Source of the DNA: Promethearchaeia archaeon
Lineage (GTDB): Archaea > Asgardarchaeota > Lokiarchaeia > Sigyniarchaeales > SOKP01
Assembly (NCBI GenBank): GCA_029856145.1
Contig: JAHQWK010000020.1
Span: 32,001 to 96,000 of the forward strand
DNA: 64,000 nucleotides
Direction of reading: 5' to 3'
Part shown: piece by piece, positions 436 through 61,725 of the stretch
Numbering within the stretch: position 1 is the first letter of the stretch
How the letters are laid out: each line of letters starts with the position of its first letter
Notes under the pieces: generated by a model
What the model was told of the DNA's origin: nothing
What the model saw: only the letters and a program-made list of their open reading frames with translations
Database searches by the model: none
Position numbers and translations under genes: made by a program

Positions 436-1764
436 TTAATACGCCTTCCCTTTTTTTTTTGCTTCCATATAATTACTTAGAACTTGATTCATCATATCAT
501 CAGGTCCACAGGTTATTATATTAATTCCCAGATTTCGAAGATTTTGTCTAATAGATAAAATATGTTCCATCATTTCTTCACTAATTGCTTCTGCTAAAGC
601 TTTATCAGTTGAAGATAAATCTATTTCATGAATCTCGAACCAAGGACTGAATGGATTAATAATTATAATAGTATGATTAAATGGGACTAATTTTTTAATA
701 GCTTGAGAAATATCCTTAGGATTTGCTTCTAAATCAGATATGACAAAAACTAAACTGCGTTTTTGAAAACGTTTTGTAAAATGAGCCATGGCTTCATTGA
801 ATTTGCACTTTCCTTGTGGTTTTATCCTTGCGACAAAATCTAAAACTTGATAAAAGTGGTCTTCTCCACTATTTGGTTTTAAAAATTTCAAATTCTTTTT
901 GTCTGAGAAGGTAAAAACTCCTACATTATCTCTTCGTGTTAATGCTACTTTTGTTAAAAGCATACAGGCTCTTATTGCATATTCAAATTTTGTATTTTCA
1001 ATTGCTCCACCCGCCATTGTATCAGATGAATCTACAACAATCATTATGGTTACATCTCTTTCACTTTCATGCTCTTTAACGATTAGTGTTTGAGTTCGAG
1101 CACTTGCTTTCCAATCTATCAATCTAAATTGATCTCCAAAAACATATTTCCTCATCCCATAAAATTCCGATCCAAGTCCTTTTTGTTTCGATCTTTGTAA
1201 TCCATAATTTAATTGTAAAGATCGTTTTGAACCTAAAATTTCAATTCTTTTAATATCTTCATAAGGTGGATATATAAGAATATCTGTAACACTATCTGGT
1301 ACAATCCTTTCAACTGAATTAAATCCTAATCTATCTTTCACTATTATTGATAAGGGTCCGAGAGCATATTCTCCTCTTACTTTTGGTTCAAGAACGTAAG
1401 TGAATTTAATTAGATCTTTTGGTCCAATTCTAGTAGATATAAAATTTTCACCTAAAATTAATCTAAATAGCTGTGGGTTGTAGTTATCTCTTATTTCAAT
1501 AAAATCAAAGCTGTTACGACCAATATTTTCAATTACCACTTTTACATGAACAAAATCATCTTTGAATACTTTTTCTTTCTCAAGTTCTCTATGCACATGC
1601 AATTCTTCTATATTCATTTTATAGTAGAAAATTGGTAAACTAATTATTGTACTAAATAATAATAAAATTGCGAAGTAAATTAAGAAATAATTTACGAATG
1701 CAAATCCAGCTGTAAGAAAAAATACAGCAAATAAAATTAAACTTCTACCTTTACCTCCTAGTAT
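436..1764 (-). CDS. DUF58 / vWA-domain protein, MoxR-associated, with N-terminal transmembrane hairpin
   Basis: DUF58 motifs GSEFYGMRKYVFGDQFRLIDWKASAR and VVDSSDTM. The track starts at ATG 1617, but the frame is open for 49 more codons (ILGGKGRSLILFAVFFLTAGFAFVNYFLIYFAILLLFSTIISL...) back to ATA 1764, which follows an AGGTG SD-like site. In-frame stop at 1780-1782. Confidence 0.88.
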   Translation of the reverse strand: MLGGKGRSLILFAVFFLTAGFAFVNYFLIYFAILLLFSTIISLPIFYYKMNIEELHVHRELEKEKVFKDDFVHVKVVIENIGRNSFDFIEIRDNYNPQLFRLILGENFISTRIGPKDLIKFTYVLEPKVRGEYALGPLSIIVKDRLGFNSVERIVPDSVTDILIYPPYEDIKRIEILGSKRSLQLNYGLQRSKQKGLGSEFYGMRKYVFGDQFRLIDWKASARTQTLIVKEHESERDVTIMIVVDSSDTMAGGAIENTKFEYAIRACMLLTKVALTRRDNVGVFTFSDKKNLKFLKPNSGEDHFYQVLDFVARIKPQGKCKFNEAMAHFTKRFQKRSLVFVISDLEANPKDISQAIKKLVPFNHTIIIINPFSPWFEIHEIDLSSTDKALAEAISEEMMEHILSIRQNLRNLGINIITCGPDDMMNQVLSNYMEAKKKGKAY

Positions 1765-1832
1765 AAAAATACACCTTATTTAATATTTTTTCTTCCAATT
1801 CTGATTAAATACTACACCATAAAAAAAACGGT

Positions 1833-23017: not shown

Positions 23018-26000
23018 TTATTTTTTTAATTTCCATTGTCTTTTACCCATTTTTGATTCAACTAGAACTTTTTCTTTACGTTCTAATTCCTTGAGTTTAA
23101 GCTGGAGATATCGGGCATCCATCATATCTTTAATTTTTAATTTGAAAATGAGATGCTTAATAGTTTGCCATTCATCAGATAAAACATTTAATATTTTTTC
23201 AGTTGTTATGATAGGTAATGTAGTTTGTTTTTGTTTTGGGGGTACTGGTTTATGTATAGGTGGAGTCTTTTTAGGAGTTACCTTACTTGGCGTTTTTCCT
23301 TTAGAAATTGGCAATTGCACTTGTTTTACAGGTATAGTATAGGGACTAACTTTAACTGGTTCTGGAGGTTTTAATTCTATTGGTTTTACTTCAATAGGTT
23401 TTTTATATGATTCTATAATTTTGCCAATAATAACTGTTTTTGTGTCTTTAGATAATAGGCTAATATTATAATCATTACAATATTCAATTAATTCGGTTTT
23501 TGTCCAATTTTTAAGTGTTTTCTCAGTGAATAATTCTTTTTTAGTTTCAACTTTCTTAGCAACTGGTTGTAATTCAGAGGGTTTTTCTATCACTTTTTCC
23601 TTTTTAATAGCAGTTTCTTTAATTTCTCTTGCTTCTGAAGATTTCACAACAGGCGTAGGTTTTTTACCTATTGCGTTCCTCATTAAATCTTCCAATTCTT
23701 TTTTGTCAAGCTTAGATTTATGTATACTCTCACCTTGAGACGCAATATTATATAGGCTGTTAACAAATATTGGTATATATTTTTCTATTAGGCTAGCTCT
23801 CTTTTCGCTTTTACGAAGATTTGCTTTTCTATTGAGATATATTCTTAATCTTCTTCCTATTGCTTCAAGGCAAAACTTAATTTCTTTTATTAAATTTTCA
23901 TCATCAGCCAATGCGTTTTTTGATTGGGATTTAAACATTAAATGCACAAAAGGTCCAGAAACATTAACTAATAATTTTATTGGTCCTTTTGGCAAGCTAT
24001 TATCATAAGTATCAAGGTTGTAGTTTTTCCAATTAACTGCTTGAACTGCTTTTGTGATAGCGCAATCTGCACTATCTCTTAATTTCGGTGTTCTATTTAC
24101 AAATCTAGATAAAACATCCCTAGACCGTTTGGGAACTTCTAAATTTCTTGAATAAGCCAGTACAGCTTCTACAACATAAGCTAAACCTTTTCCACTTGTG
24201 GGTGCTCTTGTTTCTGCTGCTACAAAATCATCATCCTTCGTATAGTTTTCAATGAAATATTCAAATACACCATGGTAGGTATCTATAGAATCTATGTCAG
24301 AGTAAGTGAGAAGATCATCAATAACTTGTTTTACTTGCTGTTGATCCGTTATTTCATCAACGATATCAATGGTTCCCAATATCTCTGAACCTAAATTAAT
24401 GACCTCTTCTGGATTTATTGAAATGTTAATGATTGCATCATCATCAATCTTGATCCCTTCTTCTAATAACGTTCTCTTTTTGTCTTCATGTAATAATTCA
24501 AATATCTGATTAATTTTATCAACGGGTCCAGCAAAGTCATCTATATTTTCTGAAATTCTTAATCCAATTTCTTTAATTAAAGTATTCTCCAGAGTTGAGC
24601 CCCCTACTGGAATTGCTGTGTCCGTTGGAGGAGCCATATACTTGATAGATTTAAACGCTAGGAATAGAGAATTAAACTGTTCTTTTGTTAATTCAATAGG
24701 TTTAACTTTAGATATAAGGACTTTATTAATAAGATCTTCAAAATCTGTTCTGTTTTTTAACTTTTTTAACTCAATCAATCCTTCTTTTGAGTCTTTAAAC
24801 AATGTGTTTAAATCTACTTTAATTTTATCCTTTTGATTTCTAATATCATCTATCTCTTTCAATAATTTTTTAATTTCTCTTTCAATATTCTTTATTTCTT
24901 TTTGAGTTTCAGTTTTTTCAATACGTTTATTTAGTTTCTTTATTTCTTTGTTTATTTTTTCGTAATCTTTATTGGATTTATTGTAATTAGTGATTAATTT
25001 CCAATAATTTTCTTTTAGATCTTCTGATGCGACTTGATAAATAATTAATTTATCTCTCGGTTTATCAGAACGACCGAAAACCCGTTTTTCATTTATCATA
25101 AAGTTTATTGTATCTGTCTTTTTCTGTGCTAAATTCACAAATCCCTCTTTTAGAATAAGTAAATTTAATCGGTCCTGAAGATCTCTTTCAGCAATATAAA
25201 TAATTTCTTTAGCTGTTTTTGAACTCATTCTTACAAAATTATCTTGTAAAAATGCAGAAATTGATTTATTTTCTGATTTTGTAATTAAATCTTGTAGGTC
25301 CCCTATATTAACTGAGGAAGGATGAGACTTAGCATATTTAGGTTCGTCTGGGAAAGAAGTTGCTAATCTTCGGTAAATTTTCTCCTTTCCCTCTGGATCA
25401 ATATAAATAATTGTCACATGAGGATTCATAAATGCAGTTTCTTCAATATATTTCTCAACATAACCTCTGACATATTTTACATTTAAATAATTCAATTTAA
25501 TATAAGTACCATGAAGAAAAAAGCTGTCAATATCTGTTGGATGAATTAAATACTTTTTCTCATTTTTAGATGTGGTAAAAAATTCTGTTACTGTAGCATA
25601 AACATTGTCAATTGATTTTGATACTGTGATAATAGGTTTACCAGTTGTATTTTGAGCATCGCTAAACGCGCTTGGGGCTCCAAATCCTTGACTACCTCTA
25701 GTTTGCTTTAATTCCATAGATTTTGATGAGGCGAGATATTTTCCAAATTTTCTTAGATCAATTTTTGACATTCCAGTCCCATTATCGAAAATTTCAAAAG
25801 TATAACTCATGATATTTTTCTGACTGATTTCAGACGTTAAAAAAGATTGTGCTTCATATTCTCTAATACGAACCCCCACTATTGGTTCTACATCAATGAT
25901 ATATTCAACGGGTTTAATGATTTCTTGCATATCATCTATTATTCTTCTAACTTCTTCTTCTACTTCCAATTCTTCTTTATCACTTATTTCTCCAGATTCT

Positions 26001-26386
26001 TCCTCTTTTTCTTCTGGCACTTGAATACTAGATTGGTCTGGTTCAACAGATTCAATACCTAATTCCTGCATTAACGTATGTTTTGCTTCATTATTTAAAG
26101 TTTGAGATTTTTTTTCTTCTTTTACTGTTTCAAGTATAGAAAATTTTTCTAAAAATAATTCTTGGTCTAATGAAAATTTAATTTTGGAATCTGGTTTTTT
26201 CAATTCTTTCCATTGAAAACTTTCGATGGCATCTAAGGCATTATCAATAAATTCAGCACAATATTGAACATGTTTCCAATAGCCAAATTCGAAACCAACT
26301 AGTTGAGTCCGCTTACGCATAAACTCAGCTATTGTTCCTTGCTTTATTTTTCCTTCTTCTTTTGAAGTAATTTTGGACGCACTCGT
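23018..26386 (-). CDS. top6B: DNA topoisomerase VI subunit B, greatly enlarged (more than 1100 aa)
   Basis: GHKL motifs EFIDNALDA, DNGTGM, TRGSQGFG; H2TH; transducer RFVNRTPKL, VNWKNYNL, FKSQSK. The conserved strap (KIKQGTIAEFMRKRTQLVGF) begins upstream of ATG 26320, so the start is placed tentatively at ACG 26386 (or ATT 26395). Confidence 0.92.
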   Translation of the reverse strand, partial: TSASKITSKEEGKIKQGTIAEFMRKRTQLVGFEFGYWKHVQYCAEFIDNALDAIESFQWKELKKPDSKIKFSLDQELFLEKFSILETVKEEKKSQTLNNEAKHTLMQELGIESVEPDQSSIQVPEEKEEESGEISDKEELEVEEEVRRIIDDMQEIIKPVEYIIDVEPIVGVRIREYEAQSFLTSEISQKNIMSYTFEIFDNGTGMSKIDLRKFGKYLASSKSMELKQTRGSQGFGAPSAFSDAQNTTGKPIITVSKSIDNVYATVTEFFTTSKNEKKYLIHPTDIDSFFLHGTYIKLNYLNVKYVRGYVEKYIEETAFMNPHVTIIYIDPEGKEKIYRRLATSFPDEPKYAKSHPSSVNIGDLQDLITKSENKSISAFLQDNFVRMSSKTAKEIIYIAERDLQDRLNLLILKEGFVNLAQKKTDTINFMINEKRVFGRSDKPRDKLIIYQVASEDLKENYWKLITNYNKSNKDYEKINKEIKKLNKRIEKTETQKEIKNIEREIKKLLKEIDDIRNQKDKIKVDLNTLFKDSKEGLIELKKLKNRTDFEDLINKVLISKVKPIELTKEQFNSLFLAFKSIKYMAPPTDTAIPVGGSTLENTLIKEIGLRISENIDDFAGPVDKINQIFELLHEDKKRTLLEEGIKIDDDAIINISINPEEVINLGSEILGTIDIVDEITDQQQVKQVIDDLLTYSDIDSIDTYHGVFEYFIENYTKDDDFVAAETRAPTSGKGLAYVVEAVLAYSRNLEVPKRSRDVLSRFVNRTPKLRDSADCAITKAVQAVNWKNYNLDTYDNSLPKGPIKLLVNVSGPFVHLMFKSQSKNALADDENLIKEIKFCLEAIGRRLRIYLNRKANLRKSEKRASLIEKYIPIFVNSLYNIASQGESIHKSKLDKKELEDLMRNAIGKKPTPVVKSSEAREIKETAIKKEKVIEKPSELQPVAKKVETKKELFTEKTLKNWTKTELIEYCNDYNISLLSKDTKTVIIGKIIESYKKPIEVKPIELKPPEPVKVSPYTIPVKQVQLPISKGKTPSKVTPKKTPPIHKPVPPKQKQTTLPIITTEKILNVLSDEWQTIKHLIFKLKIKDMMDARYLQLKLKELERKEKVLVESKMGKRQWKLKK

Positions 26387-26646
26387 ATGATTAATTCTTC
26401 ATTTAACATTATTACAACAATCTATAAATATATATACATCTATTAGTAAATTAATTGACAAAACTATAAGATATTATATATATATCTTAATTCCATAGTT
26501 TTCAATTATCTACTCGAACTTTACAATATTATTCACTGTTTACAGTAAATAAACTAATATTTAAATATTTTCATCAGATTTTAAATCATAAAAATAAGTA
26601 AGTATACATCCGAAAAAAATTTTCAAAAATCCATTTAAACTTAATT

Positions 26647-38754: not shown

Positions 38755-38856
38755 GGGCCTGTAGATCAGTGGAAGATCGCTTGATTTCATTAAGCAAGAC
38801 GCTTAATTTCAAGATTCGCATTCAAGAGGTCACGGGTTCAATTCCCGTCAGGTCCA
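38755..38856 (+). tRNA. tRNA-Ala (anticodon CGC) with a 30-nt intron at position 32/33 (38786-38815); CCA not encoded
   Basis: Acceptor stem GGGCCTG/CAGGTCC with G3:U70 and A73 (Ala identity), D arm GATC/GATC, T arm ACGGG-TTCAATT-CCCGT. Removing 38786-38815 restores CTTGA-TTCGCAT-TCAAG. AT-rich TATA-like sequence at 38731-38745. Confidence 0.92.
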
Positions 38857-41510: not shown

Positions 41511-42320
41511 TTATCCTTCTCCTTCTTCATTTCCGTGTAGAGATTCAGTTTCAGTAGAGAGTTCATTATCATCTGGGGTTTCACTACTCGATACTTCTTC
41601 AATTCCTAATTGTGTAACCATAGCACGTTTCAAATCAGTTTTATTTTTTGGTAACCCAAACATATCTGCATATTTATCAGTGGTGGTTAGTTCGTGGGAT
41701 CTTCCCTTTTTTACAGCATTTATAAACCCATTATCTATGAGATATTTTACATGTTCATATGCGCCAGTACCTCTCAATTTAATAACCATTGATTTCAAAA
41801 CTGGCTGCTTCAAAGCAATAACTGTTAAAGTTCTCAAATATCTTTCTGCTATTGCTCCTCCTTTAGCAAATTTAGAAACTTTTTCAGTATATTCTGGTTT
41901 AATTTGCATTTGATATCTATCTCCAATTTGTGCAATGACAAGAGCAGTAGAGCGTTCTAAATAATCAAAAGCTACTTCATTTACTAATGCTTCCACTTCT
42001 TTCTTAGGAAGTTCCAATTTTGTCGATATTTCTTCTATGGTTAGGGGTCTTCCAGCAGCGTACAAAGAAGCTTCAATTAAATTTCGATGGAAAATCCTTA
42101 CTTGGTTTTTTAATAATTCTTCATCAAGAATTGTGGTTTCCGAAGTGTCTTCAATCAAATTGGTTTGTAAATCATCTTCTATATCTTCGGCTTCCTCAAA
42201 TTCTTCTATTAATGGAGTTTCTGATTTTAAACTAGATTCTCCACTTAAATTAATTTCTTCTATTTTTTCTAAATCTTCTTCTTGTTTATCATCAAGAGCA
42301 TTTTCGTGATTTTCTTCCAA
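41511..42320 (-). CDS. scpB: Segregation and condensation protein B (kite subunit) with acidic N- and C-terminal tails
   Basis: IEASLYAAGRPL, LRTLTVIALKQPV, LRGTGAYEHV, TTDKYADMFGL. GGTGA SD before TTG. Confidence 0.93.
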   Translation of the reverse strand: MEENHENALDDKQEEDLEKIEEINLSGESSLKSETPLIEEFEEAEDIEDDLQTNLIEDTSETTILDEELLKNQVRIFHRNLIEASLYAAGRPLTIEEISTKLELPKKEVEALVNEVAFDYLERSTALVIAQIGDRYQMQIKPEYTEKVSKFAKGGAIAERYLRTLTVIALKQPVLKSMVIKLRGTGAYEHVKYLIDNGFINAVKKGRSHELTTTDKYADMFGLPKNKTDLKRAMVTQLGIEEVSSSETPDDNELSTETESLHGNEEGEG

Positions 42321-42361
42321 ATTATCACCATATTTTATAATTAATCCAATAAATTTAGTTT

Positions 42362-43363
42362 TTATTTAACATTGACACTAAAATCTTGAAAATCTTCAAC
42401 TTGAGACAGAGTTAATTTATTCCCAGTTGATAGGAACATTAATGCTAGAAACATACGGACAAAAGAAAATATCCGCCCAATACCACTTTTCTCTTCATTT
42501 TTAATAATATCTGCCAATTCGTAAAATGTAGGTTCTTTATTATTTAGATTAATCGTAGCCTTAATTCGATTGTACCATGATTCATGCAGTTCTTCTACTG
42601 TTTGTTCTCTTCCGCTTATATGTTTAAGAAGTTCTTTAGGGAGTTGTGCTTTAGATTTCATTTGAATCCTTTGTTGTTTTATTTCTTCTTTTCTCATTCG
42701 TCTTCTTCTTAGTTTTTCTTTATTCTGCATAACTTCTATAATAGCAGATCTCATAGCATCAAATAATTCATCTTTTGTGGCTATTTGCATTTTAGGTTGA
42801 ATTGGTTGAGGTAATGCTTTTGGAATGGTCCTACCATGTGCTTGCCTGAATCTCTCCAACTCTTCTCTTTTTTGAATTTGTTCCTCTTCTCTAATTATAC
42901 TTGAAATTTTATAATGATGTAAAACTGCAGAAGTTTTAAGCGCAATTCCCGAAATTTTATAATTTATCAAGTCTTCGTGGAGCATTTTATCGAAAAATTC
43001 ATCAACTAATTTTGCTAAATCATAAAACGCAATTTCTGATTCTTTTGCTATTTCCGAATCTAATAGACTCGAAAATGGTGGTTTTTGCCAGAATTTTAAT
43101 TCAAGCTTTTCTTTCCTCAATAAAGCAAGATCTTCCTCATCATCAAATCCAGCAACTAGTTCTTCTTCTACTTCTTCAATTTCTTGAGATCTATCTGTAA
43201 ATTCAGGATGGGATACGACCTCTTGAAGTAAATCAATTATTTCTTTTTTCTTAGATTTAGAAGGTATTTTTATATTATTTTTCGAGGCAAATTCCTTGAG
43301 TTGTTTAACAGTCCAATCATTAAAATTATATTTTTTAGTAGAATTTTGTTCATTTTCTGATAT
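42362..43363 (-). CDS. scpA: Segregation and condensation protein A (kleisin) with an extra N-terminal HeH/SAP-like module
   Basis: Kleisin N-domain (YDLAKLVDEF...SGIALKTSAVLHHYK) and C-terminal FLALMFL...LSQVEDFQD. The frame is open 81 codons upstream of TTG 43120 to ATA 43363, 6 nt after a GGTGA SD; in-frame TGA lies within that SD. Confidence 0.85.
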   Translation of the reverse strand: MSENEQNSTKKYNFNDWTVKQLKEFASKNNIKIPSKSKKKEIIDLLQEVVSHPEFTDRSQEIEEVEEELVAGFDDEEDLALLRKEKLELKFWQKPPFSSLLDSEIAKESEIAFYDLAKLVDEFFDKMLHEDLINYKISGIALKTSAVLHHYKISSIIREEEQIQKREELERFRQAHGRTIPKALPQPIQPKMQIATKDELFDAMRSAIIEVMQNKEKLRRRRMRKEEIKQQRIQMKSKAQLPKELLKHISGREQTVEELHESWYNRIKATINLNNKEPTFYELADIIKNEEKSGIGRIFSFVRMFLALMFLSTGNKLTLSQVEDFQDFSVNVK

Positions 43364-43390
43364 ACAATATCACCATTTTATATAATTTAA

Positions 43391-46300
43391 TTATTCTGTA
43401 ATCGTTGGTTCGACATCTTCCAGTTCAAGAAGTCTCTTGGCTTCCTCTTCTAAATCAACACTAAAAATATCTGTTATTCCACTTTGTTGCATTGATACGC
43501 CGTATATTCTATCTGAATTCACAATATTTTCTTCTCTGTGAGATATAACCATAAATTGAGCCTGCGAAGCGAATTCTTTTATGACCATTGAAACACGGTG
43601 AACGTTTGGACCATCGAGCGCAGCATCAATCTCATCCATTACGTAAAATGGAGCAGGATAAAATTCTTGAACTGCAAAAATGAAAGATAATGCTACAAGC
43701 GTTTTTTCCCCACCACTTAAAATTTCTAGTGAACTAATTTTCTTACCTCTTGGTCTTGCTTCGATAGAAATACCCCCTTCAAAAGGTTTATCTGGCCTAT
43801 CTAAGATCATTTTTGCAGAACCCCCTGGAGATAATTTCTGAAAAATCCTTGAAAATTCCCGATTAATTTCATGATAAGCTTTCATGAAAGTGCGAGTTTT
43901 TTCTAACTCAATTTTATCAATCGCATCAAGAATTGACTTTCTTTCTCTTTGAATTGTCTGTCGCCTCATATCTATTTCATCAAATCTTTCTTTGACTGTG
44001 TCATATTGTTGAATTGCCTTCAAATTCACGGGTTCAAGAGTTTTTTTCTTTTTTGTTAATTCCACGATATCCGACTGTAGTTCTGCTTCAATAAGATCAT
44101 CAGTTACTGGCGGCAATGAACCGTATTCTTTAGAACGCTGAAATAAGGTTTCTATTTGGTCAGTACACATTATCTTTTTGGACTCATAATTATTTATTTT
44201 AGAATTTTCCATAGAAAGATCTGATTTTAAATCTGTTATAACTTTCTGATATTGCTTTTGCTTTTTCCATGATTCATCTTTTTCTTGTATATACTTGTCA
44301 ATCTCTTTTTGTTTTTCATCTTTCTTCGCATTTTCATTAGCTAAATCTTCTTTCAATATTTCTAAGTCTTTTGTTATTGATTCAACTTGTTCTTCAGTAT
44401 CCTTTATATCTTGACCCAATCCTATTATCTTTTGTTCTCTCTCTTTATTTTTATTTAATTCATTTAATTTCCCTTGAGATCTTTGTAAATCTTTATTTAA
44501 TTTATTTAATTTTTTCTGAGCTGCTTTTTGAGATTCTAACTCTTGAGATTTTTCATCTCTTAAAGTATTTATAACCTGTTGCTTTTGATCTACATTTTTT
44601 TGAATTTCTTCAACTTGGGAATTTAATCCTTGCATATCATCTTGACAAGTCTTAATTCTATTATTAGCATCTACGTTCTCTTTTTTAATATCTTCAATAG
44701 TGGTGATAATCCTCATCACATTTTGAAGTGCTCTTAGACGGTCCATTGTATCTTCAAGGATTTTGTTTTCAGCATCTATCTGTTTTCGCAAATTCTCGGT
44801 TATTTCCCAGAAATTTTCTTTTCGAATAAGAAGCTCATCAATATTCTTTTGTAGTGAATTTTGTTCAACTTGAATATTTTTTATGTTTTCTTCTGTTTTG
44901 ACTATTATGTTTTTCTTTTCTTCAATAAGAAAATTCAATTTTTCTACATTACCATCAATCTCTACGATATTATCAAATAAATTCGTAATTCCGTGTAATT
45001 CTTGTAACTTTTCTCTTAAATTTTCTAATTCCTTTTGCTTTTTATCAATATCATCTTGAATTTTAGATATATTATCCCAATAGGTATCCTTAAGTTCTTT
45101 CAATTTAATTATCTCAGAATCCAAGTTATTGACTTCTAATTGTCTATTATCGATAATTTCCTTTCTTTCATTTATTTCTTCTTCTGCTTTTTTAATTCTT
45201 TCATTTAATTCAGATTTTCTTTTACCAATTTCTTCAAGTCTTTTATTATAAGATGAAAGGTTTTCAGAAAAATGCTTTACTTGGATTCTAGCCTCAGTTA
45301 ATTGTTGCTCATTTTTATTAAAATCATCTGTTTGAGATTTAATGCTTGCTGAGATCTCTTCCAATTGTTTATATAATTCTTGGCTTTTAGACATAGTTAA
45401 TTTTCTTAAAGAGAGATATACATTTTCAAGAATTTCCATTAGGTCTTGAACAAAATTATCAAATCTAATCGTCGAAGATTGGACTTCAACATCAGCGGAT
45501 TCTTTTACTTTTTCGATTAATTGACTAATTGTATCATCAGCATTATCTGTAAATAACTTTAAAGTTTGCATAATAGAACTAAACATATTTGTCATTTCAG
45601 TAGGTTTTTCTGTATCGGCACCAATGTCCTCAACTGATTTCATAATATCAATTATATCTAGAATAAATTTTTTGAAATCTTCTGCAGAGGTTTCAATTGC
45701 TTCTGCATTTGATTGTTGTATATTACTTTTAATAGATTCTACTGAAATGTTAATATTCTGGGTAAGCATGTTTAAAATTTGAAGAATTCCGGTAATATCT
45801 TTTGTATTTTTATCATATTCTTCTTCAGAAACTTCAATTTTCTTAAGGAGATTTTCTCGTTCTTGTGAAAGATCTTGTAACCGTCTTTGAATATTTTCTT
45901 TTCTGGATTCAGATTTTTCTGATTCACTTGTGACTTTTGAAAGAGTTTTACTTAAGGAATCAATTTGTAGTTCTAATTTATTCTTTTCTCGATCTAATTT
46001 TGTTAATTCTTTTGTAAGGATTTTTAATTCTGTATTGATATTATCAATCTTTGCATTGTTATCATTGATTTCAGATTCAAATGAATAATTCTTCATTTTC
46101 ATTAATTCTAAGTCTTGTTCATTTTTCCTATAGATTGAGTTTTCTTGCTTTAATTTCACTTTTAGATCGTTTAAATCTTTGTTAATATCCTCATTTTCTT
46201 TCAATAATTCTTTTACAGCTTTTTCAGCATCTCTACCTTCACTTAAATCAGTAATTTTCTTCTCGATAGAAATTTTCTTTTCATTTAATTGTTGGATATT

Positions 46301-47842
46301 CGCTTGATTCATTTTAATTTCAGTATTTAATGATGATAAAGAAGCTTGAAAATCTGTCAATTTTGAATTTAATTGATTTTTTACTGCTTGAATACTATTT
46401 ATATTGTTTTCTAAATCTTTTTGACTTTGATTTTCTTTAGATATTTTGGCATTTAAGTCATTAATTCGTTTTCTAATTTCTGATTCTGTCTTTTTTGTTG
46501 CTTCAATGGCTTCATCAATACTTTCGGTATCTTTTTTCAATTTTTCTAGCTCAGTTTCTAATTTTTGCTTCTTTTCCTCATTCTTTTTTATAGTTCCTCT
46601 GAGCATCTTAATTTGAGCGTTATTAGATGAAATATTTTGTTGTATTTTGGAGATTTCTGCTTTAAAAAGAGATTTTTCATCATCAGTATTTTTTATTTGA
46701 AGATCCAAATCAGCTTGGTTTTGCTGTCTTTTTTCAATTTCTTTTTTGGCCTCTTCTATATGATTCTCATAATCTAAAATTTCATTTGAAACACTTTCTA
46801 TTAATGAATCAAAAGTTTGTCCCTCTTCAAGCTTCATTTGTTTACTTTCTAAAGTTCCAATTTCATTAACTAATTTTTCGATTGATTTTTGAGCTAAATT
46901 TAGTGTAGTTTGACTTGATGAAATTTGTGTCTTTACTTGGGTAATATTTTCAGTAATTTGCTCTCTCTCTTTTTCTTTCTCGGTAATTGTTTTTTGAATA
47001 TTATCCATAACAAGTGATTCTTGTTTTAAGATATCTTCTTGTCTATTGATTTTTTCTTGTAATTCTTCAATGATTTTTAAAGAATTTTCGATTTTTCTTT
47101 CTAAATCATCTTCCTCTTGCCGTAACTTTGAAATTTTTAAAGCAATCAACTGAGAATTTAAAAAATTTATTTGATCATCTAATTCCTTCCAAGCTAAAGC
47201 ATCGTTTTTCTCCTTTTCCACTTTTTTCAACTGAGAAGAAACTTCTTTAAAGATCGCTTCAAATTGTCCTAAATCTCTTTCTGCTTTTTCCAATTCTTTT
47301 AACGTAGCATCTTTCATTTCATCATATTTTTGAAGTCCGATTAATTCTTCAATAAATCTTCTACGATCTTCTGCATTCATATGAGTTAATTCCACAATTT
47401 TTCCTTGAAGGACAAATTGATTACTTCCATCTGGATCGATATTAGCCGCTGCTAACGCATTAAGAATTTGTTGGCGAGTAGTTTTTTTTCCATTCATTTT
47501 ATAGCCACCACCACCACCTCTCTTGATAGTTCGAGTAATTTCAAAATCAATGGTGCCTCCTGGAAAAGCATTTTCAGAATTATCGAAATATAGTGTGACA
47601 GAAGCTCTTTGAGAGGGATTTTTTCCTCTTGAACCCGCGAAGATGAGATCTTCAAGACTTTTTGCTCTCATAGTTTTCTTACTTAACCTACCTAACGCGA
47701 AACAAAGAGCATCTATAATATTAGACTTACCTGCCCCATTTGGTCCAACGATGCACGTAAATCCACTAGAAAGTCGAATTGTAACAGTTCTATCTCCAAA
47801 ACTTTTAAAACCACTCATTGAAATTTTTTTAATATAAGTCAA
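43391..47842 (-). CDS. smc: SMC ATPase, 1483 aa, with extended arms and no recognisable canonical hinge
   Basis: GFKSF, GPNGAGKSN Walker A, Q-loop VLQG, PVNLKA, signature LSGGEK, Walker B/D-loop MDEIDAALD, H-switch VISH. Directly upstream of scpA-scpB. Confidence 0.93.
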   Translation of the reverse strand: MTYIKKISMSGFKSFGDRTVTIRLSSGFTCIVGPNGAGKSNIIDALCFALGRLSKKTMRAKSLEDLIFAGSRGKNPSQRASVTLYFDNSENAFPGGTIDFEITRTIKRGGGGGYKMNGKKTTRQQILNALAAANIDPDGSNQFVLQGKIVELTHMNAEDRRRFIEELIGLQKYDEMKDATLKELEKAERDLGQFEAIFKEVSSQLKKVEKEKNDALAWKELDDQINFLNSQLIALKISKLRQEEDDLERKIENSLKIIEELQEKINRQEDILKQESLVMDNIQKTITEKEKEREQITENITQVKTQISSSQTTLNLAQKSIEKLVNEIGTLESKQMKLEEGQTFDSLIESVSNEILDYENHIEEAKKEIEKRQQNQADLDLQIKNTDDEKSLFKAEISKIQQNISSNNAQIKMLRGTIKKNEEKKQKLETELEKLKKDTESIDEAIEATKKTESEIRKRINDLNAKISKENQSQKDLENNINSIQAVKNQLNSKLTDFQASLSSLNTEIKMNQANIQQLNEKKISIEKKITDLSEGRDAEKAVKELLKENEDINKDLNDLKVKLKQENSIYRKNEQDLELMKMKNYSFESEINDNNAKIDNINTELKILTKELTKLDREKNKLELQIDSLSKTLSKVTSESEKSESRKENIQRRLQDLSQERENLLKKIEVSEEEYDKNTKDITGILQILNMLTQNINISVESIKSNIQQSNAEAIETSAEDFKKFILDIIDIMKSVEDIGADTEKPTEMTNMFSSIMQTLKLFTDNADDTISQLIEKVKESADVEVQSSTIRFDNFVQDLMEILENVYLSLRKLTMSKSQELYKQLEEISASIKSQTDDFNKNEQQLTEARIQVKHFSENLSSYNKRLEEIGKRKSELNERIKKAEEEINERKEIIDNRQLEVNNLDSEIIKLKELKDTYWDNISKIQDDIDKKQKELENLREKLQELHGITNLFDNIVEIDGNVEKLNFLIEEKKNIIVKTEENIKNIQVEQNSLQKNIDELLIRKENFWEITENLRKQIDAENKILEDTMDRLRALQNVMRIITTIEDIKKENVDANNRIKTCQDDMQGLNSQVEEIQKNVDQKQQVINTLRDEKSQELESQKAAQKKLNKLNKDLQRSQGKLNELNKNKEREQKIIGLGQDIKDTEEQVESITKDLEILKEDLANENAKKDEKQKEIDKYIQEKDESWKKQKQYQKVITDLKSDLSMENSKINNYESKKIMCTDQIETLFQRSKEYGSLPPVTDDLIEAELQSDIVELTKKKKTLEPVNLKAIQQYDTVKERFDEIDMRRQTIQRERKSILDAIDKIELEKTRTFMKAYHEINREFSRIFQKLSPGGSAKMILDRPDKPFEGGISIEARPRGKKISSLEILSGGEKTLVALSFIFAVQEFYPAPFYVMDEIDAALDGPNVHRVSMVIKEFASQAQFMVISHREENIVNSDRIYGVSMQQSGITDIFSVDLEEEAKRLLELEDVEPTITE

Positions 47843-59585: not shown

Positions 59586-60311
59586 TTGTTTTTGTCATAT
59601 TTTGAATCAAGACTACCAGCAGATTTCGATAATTTTACAGAAATGCTTAAAAAATTAGAATTTTGTGAAAAGCTAGGGATTAAAAATGTTATTTTGGAGC
59701 CTATAAATAAATTAAAAGTAATACCATTAGAAATAAAAAAGAAAATAAAAAGCAATACAACACTAAACGTATTTTTTCGAATTAATTTAAGATTAAATAA
59801 TCTTGAGGATTTCAAAAAAAGAATTAAACAATATAACAATTGTTCTGACATCCTTTCAATTGAGTCCTTAAATAAAGAAGTTCAATTACAAGCAGCAAGA
59901 GATTCAAGGGTTGATATTATCTCTTTTTCTAATCTGCAGATAATTAAAACACTTACTCCCGGAGTAATCTCACTCACTAAACAAAATAATTCATTTTTGG
60001 AATTTTCGTTAGCTTCAATCATGATAACAAACAAGGCAAACCAATCAAAAAATTTTAGAAATCTATATAGATTTATCCAGTTAGCTTTAAAATATAAAGC
60101 AAATTGTATCATTAGCGGAAATTTTGATGATTTGTATGATCTTAGACACCCTAGAGCCTTAATAAGCATTTGCAATTCTCTTTTAGGAATTTCTTTAGAT
60201 AGAGCAAAGAAAATCTTTATAGTAAATCCAATTTTATTGTTGGAGAGAACTGAAAAACATCATAGTAATAAACTTGAACCAGAAGTTAGATTAATTAAAG
60301 GTGGGGATTAA
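59586..60311 (+). CDS. rnp3: Ribonuclease P protein component 3 (Rpp30)
   Basis: AARDSRVDII, LEFSL, IISGN...YDLRHPR; followed by Pop5. Confidence 0.85.
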   Translation: MFLSYFESRLPADFDNFTEMLKKLEFCEKLGIKNVILEPINKLKVIPLEIKKKIKSNTTLNVFFRINLRLNNLEDFKKRIKQYNNCSDILSIESLNKEVQLQAARDSRVDIISFSNLQIIKTLTPGVISLTKQNNSFLEFSLASIMITNKANQSKNFRNLYRFIQLALKYKANCIISGNFDDLYDLRHPRALISICNSLLGISLDRAKKIFIVNPILLLERTEKHHSNKLEPEVRLIKGGD

Positions 60312-60646
60312 TAATAGGTCGAAAAGAAAGGCAGAGATATATTTCCTTTAAAATAATTAAAGAAAATAAAATAGATATCACTCAAAATTCACTTTTAAAA
60401 TCAATTTGGCAATCGATCTGGAGATATTTTGGATTGAAAGAAGCAAATAAAATTGGATTATGGTTAATAGAACTTAATTTGGATGAAGAATATGGAATTA
60501 TAAGATGTTCTCACCAGACTAAAGAAACAATAATTTCTGCTTTAAGCCTTGTAAAAGAAATTAATGGAATAAAAGTCATTCTATCACCATTTAAAACTTC
60601 AGGAACTATTCTATCACTAAAAAAAAGAATTAATAAAGAAAAATAG
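60311..60646 (+). CDS. rnp2: Ribonuclease P protein component 2 (Pop5/Rpp14)
   Basis: GIIRCSH and TSGTILSLK. The conserved N-terminal RKERQRYISFKII lies upstream of the track start TTG 60434. No ATG/GTG/TTG exists back to the stop at 60296-60298, so the start is placed at ATA 60311 (or 60314), overlapping the rnp3 TAA. Confidence 0.85.
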   Translation: MIGRKERQRYISFKIIKENKIDITQNSLLKSIWQSIWRYFGLKEANKIGLWLIELNLDEEYGIIRCSHQTKETIISALSLVKEINGIKVILSPFKTSGTILSLKKRINKEK

Positions 60647-61570: not shown

Positions 61571-61725
61571 ATGGAAGATATTTCAATTAATTTTTAATAC
61601 TAAAGTTGATGTCGAATTTTTAGTAAAACATAAAATTTATACGAAAAATATTAAATTCAATTTTAATTATCAATTTTTATATTTAGCATTACAGAAAATA
61701 GAAGTATTTAAAAATAAATGGCTTT

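Follow-up and report, generated by a model that had tools for sequence, protein, structure and literature searches.

The smc-scpA-scpB locus

The window (that is, the whole 64,000-nt stretch of DNA analyzed here) comes from a metagenome-assembled genome (MAG) of a Promethearchaeota (Loki-type Asgard) archaeon, with a size of 3.55 Mb and a G+C content of ~30%. It contains the genes smc, scpA, and scpB in that order, with scpA between the other two (Table 1). The sequence downstream of the smc stop codon is aaaATGGTGAtattgtATAtcagaaaat, in which an in-frame TGA overlaps a Shine-Dalgarno (SD) sequence, GGTGA, and in which an ATA codon comes two codons past that TGA. The original prediction held that scpA starts at this ATA, in the arrangement GGTGA-tattgt-ATA, and that the ATA opens 81 sensible codons. 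The letters of the minus strand at 43374..43361 are as predicted and the count is correct: the 83 codons that follow the upstream TGA include no ATG, GTG, or TTG (hereafter NTG), and the codons from ATA to the first TTG are 81 sense codons. The same SD geometry had been claimed for scpB, for which the GGTGA and the TTG start are correct, but for which the spacer is 4 nt (taat) and not the 5-6 nt implied.

Table 1. Positions of features in the window (numbered from its first nucleotide) and of a congener's initiator tRNA gene.
Feature	Position	Strand	Remarks
SD sequence GGTGA of scpA	43374..43370	-	its TGA (43372..43370) is the in-frame upstream stop
ATA, proposed scpA start	43363..43361	-	6 nt after GGTGA (spacer tattgt)
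TTG, first canonical codon of scpA frame	43120..43118	-	start that an ORF caller would choose
N-terminal part of ScpA lost with TTG start	43121..43363	-	81 codons
HeH/Ish1/SAP-like helix-extension-helix domain of ScpA (residues 14-48)	43220..43324	-	Pfam
Full scpA (predicted kleisin) coding sequence	42362..43363	-	333 aa + stop
smc	43391..47842	-	stop 43393..43391, 27 nt upstream of scpA ATA
scpB with SD	41511..42329	-	GGTGA (42329..42325), taat, TTG (42320); coding sequence 41511-42320
DUF58 gene, predicted start	1762..1776	-	AGGTG, 7 nt, ATA (1764..1762)
rnp2/Pop5, predicted start	60300..60316	+	SD-like GGTGGGGA, then ATA ATA; start most likely 60314..60316 (or 60311)
top6B, predicted start ATT	26371..26369	-	tenth codon past upstream TGA
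Initiator tRNA, congener	G022 c[903345,903455], locus L253		canonical: A1:U72, GGG/CCC anticodon stem, CAU

Gene identities in the window were checked against Pfam and NCBIfam. The scpB product matches PF04079 with 115 bits. The window's own ScpA protein does not match the ScpA profile PF02616; the profile is matched by 11 of 17 ScpA orthologs, with a best E value of 7e-5. A profile of the ScpA family matches, in the PDB, kleisins alone, and these weakly (E values of 0.05-0.6), and the JGI names for ScpA relatives are those of the kleisin family. The matches of the orthologs, the PDB profile search, the JGI names, and synteny together identify the gene between smc and scpB as scpA, encoding a predicted kleisin.

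The N-terminal extension of scpA is coding

The 81-codon extension upstream of the first canonical codon corresponds to a helix-extension-helix domain followed by an acidic linker. It matches the Pfam family Ish1 with 31.3 bits, above the gathering score of 26.6, and also matches HeH and Rho_N, in both cases below the cut-off of the family; families of the HeH/Ish1 type are matched by 9 of 17 ScpA orthologs. Comparison of the extension with those of 19 congeners yields 242, 118, and 531 mismatches at codon positions 1, 2, and 3 (60% at position 3), and comparison of the gene core with the same 19 congeners yields 625, 283, and 1545 (63% at position 3). The substitution pattern of the extension thus matches that of the gene core, which indicates that the extension is under selection at the protein level. 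We conclude that the 81-codon extension is coding.

The HeH/Ish1 module of ScpA also matches many other proteins of the genus, among them the ~1130-aa frames of Top6B in relatives, at the C-terminal end (window 23021-26398, minus strand), and this DNA-binding module therefore seems to have been attached repeatedly to chromosome proteins.

An ATH codon at SD spacing is conserved among scpA relatives

In 20 congeners, with 78-92% identity, residue 1 of ScpA is already part of the match, and only 1-7 codons of open frame precede it. The start regions of nearly all 20 have the form GGTGA NNN NNN AT(T/A/C) TC., and GGTGA or a near variant precedes scpA in 19 of them. We extended the comparison to 65 distinct related loci, in 40 of which the codon at SD+6 could be scored by rule. 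This codon is ATT in 22, ATA in 13, ATC in 1, and ATG in 3; that is, it is ATT, ATA, or ATC (ATH) in 36 of 40. Loci outside the rule, scored by eye, have mostly ATH in close relatives and ATG or GTG in more distant genera. Locus L014, among others, has ATG in the same column as the scpA ATA. The results show that ATH at a functional SD spacing is conserved, with GGTGA-N6-ATH present in most scpA-related loci. Several relatives have GTG, TTG, or ATG 0-3 nt after the SD, inside the spacer, and this NTG could be the start in those species.

Three further genes of the window have conserved, probable ATH starts

The original prediction assigned non-standard starts to three further genes: ATA for a DUF58 gene, ATA for rnp2, and ACG or ATT for top6B. 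For the DUF58 gene, identified by a match to PF01882, the assignment is borne out: the codon before LGGKGR is ATA, ATT, or ATC in 27 genus-level loci (own genome included) and ATG only in L069, and relatives have GGTG 6-8 nt upstream of the ATH codon. For rnp2/Pop5 the ATA likewise stands: the codon before (V/G)RKERQRY is ATA or ATC in most of 27 congeners, is ATG in L028 and L033 and GTG in L045 and L046, and in relatives lies downstream of a G-rich SD. The PF01900 profile begins at residue 9 of the ATA-started Pop5, so a TTG start would remove about one-third of the Pop5 domain.

For top6B, one of the two proposed codons is upheld, namely the second, ATT. The motif AAA ATT (T/S)(S/T) KEEGKIKQGTIAE(Y/F)M is kept in congeners, and the closest relative, L082, has ATG in the ATT column. 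The ACG is not conserved, and in L091 and L092 an upstream stop codon lies 4 codons before the ATT column, immediately downstream of the codon aligned with ACG; a start at ACG was rejected on these grounds.

Thus each of the four flagged genes has ATT, ATA, or ATC at the same aligned codon in ~20-30 congeners, and ATG or GTG there in a few; for DUF58, rnp2, and top6B the comparison covers about 28 congeners each. The prediction's tally of four non-standard starts among about 45 genes is retained as to the four, the denominator that we use being the 37 genes of the window having an ortholog in the congener (4/37). One further position in the window resembles a non-canonical start: at 61714-61716 (plus strand), upstream of the called TTG (61726), the sequence AAA ATA AAT GGC TTT is conserved, and the congener has ACA in place of that TTG; no clear SD is present at 61714-61716.

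Non-NTG starts account for about 5-6% of genes

The MAG contains 2646 stop-to-stop ORFs of at least 100 codons, among which 109 have at least 30 codons, and 45 at least 50 codons, before the first NTG; GGTGA-N6-ATT or GGTGA-N6-ATA stands at the beginning of many of these. In an SD-anchored tally we counted the codons after GGTGA that open a long frame near its 5' end. With a spacer of 6 nt, the counts are 14 for ATT, 11 for ATA, and 2 for ATC, versus 12 for ATG, 9 for TTG, and 2 for GTG; with control spacers of 3, 9, 12, and 15 nt, the ATH totals are 12, 7, 10, and 9. With background subtracted, ATH accounts for roughly a fifth of GGTGA-led (strong-SD) starts. TTG starts, which had been described as frequent, are so: among ORFs with an NTG no more than 3 codons from the upstream stop, ~21% have TTG as the first NTG.

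A genome-wide count of conserved N-terminal extensions lacking an NTG start, which had been suggested as a check, was obtained by ortholog comparison with the whole genome of a closed congener, G022 (1441 pairs; median identity 79%). In 54 of the 1441 pairs at least 20 conserved aligned codons precede the first NTG, and in 35 at least 30 do. Upstream stretches of at least 30 codons have a position-3 mismatch share of 0.58-0.62, versus 0.595 for the coding control; stretches of 8-12 codons have a share of 0.35 and are conserved non-coding leaders. Because short leaders are conserved as DNA between congeners, a threshold of 8 codons is useless, and thresholds of 16-30 codons were used. An authentic N-terminus is free of NTG over its first 20 codons with a measured probability of 0.53 and over its first 30 with one of 0.39; with the counts corrected for this, we estimate that about 5-6% of genes have a non-NTG start.

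Inspection of the 54 pairs gave ~37 clear cases, comprising ~19 ATT, 12 ATA, 4 ATC, 1 CTG, and 1-2 GTT, the remainder being gene splits, interrupted genes, or not clear. In ~11 of the ~37 clear cases the congener has ATG or TTG in the same column, and with the start column fixed in this way GGTG is present upstream in 9 of 11, compared with ~7% of ATG genes. Among ATH starts called automatically, just 59% have an SD-like motif and 33% have GGTG; the calling rule is noisy. On the basis of these comparisons, scpA, the three other genes of the window, and about one gene in 20 genome-wide almost certainly start at AUA, AUU, or AUC behind an SD.

The rarer starts lie behind GGTGA or GGTTGA with a spacer of 6-7 nt, in the MAG (G000) at C19:136850-137347 (CTG; ATG in congener), C9:461196-461672 (GTT in both genomes), and C2:47497-48435 (ATT vs. 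GTT). Two conserved genes of the MAG look interrupted: a GTPase gene (C5:34223-35422), in which TAG cuts the G1 motif (GHVDHGKTTL in congener), and a UppS-like gene (C3:194930-195610), in which an insert of ~10 codons with TAA lies between IIDG and NRRWA.

AUH starts in the family and in its sister family

In other genera of the same family, ATH and NTG are mixed at the four flagged genes. For seven ATH-start genes we examined orthologs in the sister family (closed genomes G032 and G061 included), and 34 of 35 have ATG, GTG, or TTG. The exception, L352 (in G038), has ATC behind GGAGGGGGA in place of the ATG of its congeners, so that the family is not quite alone in having AUH starts. As judged from this seven-gene contrast, AUH starts are characteristic of this Lokiarchaeia family. 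The conservation of the four genes across congeners and the genome-wide share of non-NTG starts agree with the original prediction of relaxed start-codon selection in the lineage, with one refinement: the relaxation is not general, being tied to a strong SD at fixed spacing and affecting mostly the third position (AUH).

Explanations for the scpA start

According to the explanation that we favor, the GGUGA located 6 nt upstream would pair with the 3' end of 16S rRNA and so set the AUA at 43363..43361 in the P site, and the ordinary initiator Met-tRNA (anticodon CAU) would accept AUA despite the third-position mismatch. ScpA would thus start with Met and would bear the N-terminal HeH/Ish1 domain, as one instance of a family-wide habit in which genes start at AUU, AUA, or AUC and, rarely, at CUG or GUU. 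The scpA frame offers no canonical start, and ATH interchanges with ATG, GTG, and TTG in the same column between species. We consider it highly probable that scpA is translated in this manner, that is, from an SD-placed AUA read by ordinary Met-tRNAi as part of a family-wide habit; the decoding of AUH starts by Met-tRNAi, with insertion of Met, is the step that we infer.

The choice that an ORF caller would make, the TTG at 43120, is the first canonical codon in the scpA frame, and the 81 codons upstream of it could in principle be an untranslated leader that is open by chance and conserved as DNA, as short upstream stretches (8-12 codons) often are. This is very improbable, however, given that the stretch contains a Pfam domain scoring above cut-off, has a share of position-3 substitutions like that of the gene core, and keeps an open frame, with synonymous changes, in more than 60 species. 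The ATG at 43376..43374 overlaps the SD and lies in the +1 frame; for it to be the start of scpA, either ribosomes would have to undergo a programmed +1 frameshift at AAA-TGA, or an assembly error in an A-run would have to be concealing an ATG start. Although ATGGTGA is present in the MAG itself and in ~10 of 20 congeners, and although the short ATG frame ends in AGA AAA TGA, about half of the congeners lack the ATG and have ttGGTGA, aaGGTGA, agGGTGA, or agGGTAG instead. The sequence of the would-be shift site varies freely among congeners, the ATH-after-SD layout recurs in dozens of unrelated genes, and more than 40 independent assemblies agree; we regard both versions of this explanation as having very little chance of being correct.

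Two other explanations accept the AUA as start but differ as to how it is used. Initiation at the AUA might be restricted to ribosomes coming directly from termination at the smc stop, 27 nt upstream (termination-reinitiation), as the proximity of that stop codon and the smc-scpA-scpB operon would allow. Yet ATH-start genes are not enriched near the ends of upstream same-strand ORFs (0.20, vs. 0.25 for ATG genes), and DUF58, rnp2, and top6B have the same conserved SD-ATH layout, so that coupling to smc is unlikely to be the basis of the start. Alternatively, ATA and ATT might be cognate starts, owing to a dedicated tRNA or to an alteration of the genetic code. This is extremely improbable: within conserved proteins, Ile is most often encoded by ATT and ATA; the third base of the start can be T, A, or C, in alternation with ATG, GTG, and TTG; and both the anticodon (CAU) and the GGG/CCC stem of the congener's initiator tRNA are normal.

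Initiation machinery

No aIF1 gene was detected in the MAG with PF01253 or with a congener's aIF1, and no initiator tRNA gene was detected in the MAG; the initiation machinery was therefore examined in relatives. The aIF1 gene is present in 16 of 18 congeners and in 68 of 81 genomes of the order. Since most relatives have the gene, its absence from the MAG is attributed to an assembly gap, and loss of aIF1 was rejected as the cause of AUH starts. An altered initiator tRNA was likewise rejected as the cause, the tRNAi of the closed congener being canonical (Table 1), with one 32-nt intron after position 40. ARAGORN and Rfam detect just 19-25 tRNAs in these genomes, presumably because of introns. 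An intron-containing tRNA gene is present in the window at 38755-38856 (plus strand; G000 C20:70755-70856; Rfam), just upstream of valS, and a tRNA-Sec gene is present elsewhere in the MAG and in the congener.

The leader of the aIF1 (SUI1) gene has the form AAGGTTGTGA-N9-ATT AAA GA., conserved in five genera of the family in 11 of 11 loci (among the relatives L180, L182-L186, and L322-L325). In several species stop codons occur inside the N9 spacer, which places the start of the aIF1 gene at the ATT. The corresponding start is ATA in a sixth genus (g13) and TTG in the sister family.

Comparison with known systems

In archaea, SD-led pre-positioning of the initiation complex is established, and aIF1 has been reported to discriminate against non-canonical starts (PMC6237735). 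In bacteria, E. coli infC (encoding IF3) and pcnB start at AUU (reviewed in PMC4705826), Enterococcus faecalis ebpA starts at ATT (PMC4447247), and mRNAs with AUG, GUG, UUG, AUU, or AUA have been compared by competition in vitro (PMC5499595). The AUH starts described here are like those of infC, pcnB, and ebpA in that the deviation from AUG is at the third position, behind an SD, and in that annotators pick a downstream ATG. The bacterial starts are read by the initiator tRNA, and on that point the likeness would extend to the Asgard starts if our proposal is correct. They differ in that the bacterial cases comprise few genes, whereas here the starts comprise about one gene in 20, including roughly a fifth of strong-SD genes, and are family-wide, in an archaeon having eukaryote-type factors (aIF1, aIF1A, and aIF2) and with ATH and NTG turning over freely between species.

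Within the Asgard archaea, an ATT start has been proposed for the tubulin gene atubA of a Kariarchaeaceae MAG and was termed 'rare' by its authors (bioRxiv 10.64898/2026.02.15.705738; PMC13394414). As with scpA, the gene is shortened in GenBank and the real start is proposed to be an ATT at RBS distance; unlike the present case, atubA is one gene, in another Asgard class, and carries no genome- or lineage-wide claim. In Haloferax ribosome profiling, near-cognate sites were seen and then set aside. Our search of the literature found no systematic description of an AUH-start habit, the sole related remark being that on the 'rare ATT start codon' of Asgard tubulin. We conclude that the event is of a mechanistically known kind and that its scale and phylogenetic setting are new.

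Animal mitochondria initiate at AUA, AUU, and AUC with a tRNAMet bearing f5C34 (PMC2655697), and thus, as would be the case here, combine a relaxed third start-codon position with a single Met-tRNA; in contrast to the present case, in which AUA and AUU stay Ile internally, they have a modified C34 and a changed code (AUA is Met internally). In eukaryotes, near-cognate initiation is tuned by the levels of eIF1 and eIF5 (PMC5666671, PMC5714202). The likeness here is that the factor is homologous (aIF1 being the eIF1 homologue) and that the weak ATT start of the family's aIF1 recalls the autoregulation of eIF1 through poor context. The difference is that eukaryotes scan and favor CUG, GUG, and ACG in Kozak context, whereas here the site is SD-fixed and the codons are almost only AUH.

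The ATT start of aIF1 recalls both the AUU start of infC and the poor context of eIF1 (PMC6237735, PMC4705826), and suggests a feedback hypothesis that we offer tentatively and consider less probable than not by a wide measure: the start-codon stringency of the family may have been reset as a system, with the level of aIF1 held, by feedback through its own AUU, at a point permitting efficient initiation from SD-led AUH codons, and with the AUH genes (~5%) forming an aIF1-tuned regulon. If this is true, eIF1-controlled non-AUG initiation would have a prokaryotic equivalent among the nearest relatives of eukaryotes. The family offers a natural system for asking how archaeal aIF1, aIF1A, and aIF2 tolerate third-position mismatches, and would allow testing of whether control of start-codon stringency predates eukaryotes.

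Consequences for annotation

Starts at AUA, AUU, and AUC behind an SD lead ordinary gene finders to shorten the proteins concerned. If about one gene in 20 starts at AUH, calls of the Prodigal type would systematically strip N-terminal domains (here, the HeH/Ish1 DNA-binding module of ScpA, about one-third of Pop5, two transmembrane helices' worth of the DUF58 protein, and the N-terminus of Top6B), and small genes may go wholly unannotated. This matters to the search for eukaryote-like proteins and domains, for which Asgard proteomes are mined. The systematic truncation foreseen in the original prediction is seen in public entries: among the best 120 public ScpA relatives, 66 are N-terminally truncated (less than 329 aa), their first residues lying within the HeH domain or past it, as in VKELREFAS..., MREFADKN..., VSHPEF..., or MEEELIAGF.... 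Full-length public ScpA entries are mostly from species with GTG or ATG in or beside the SD spacer.
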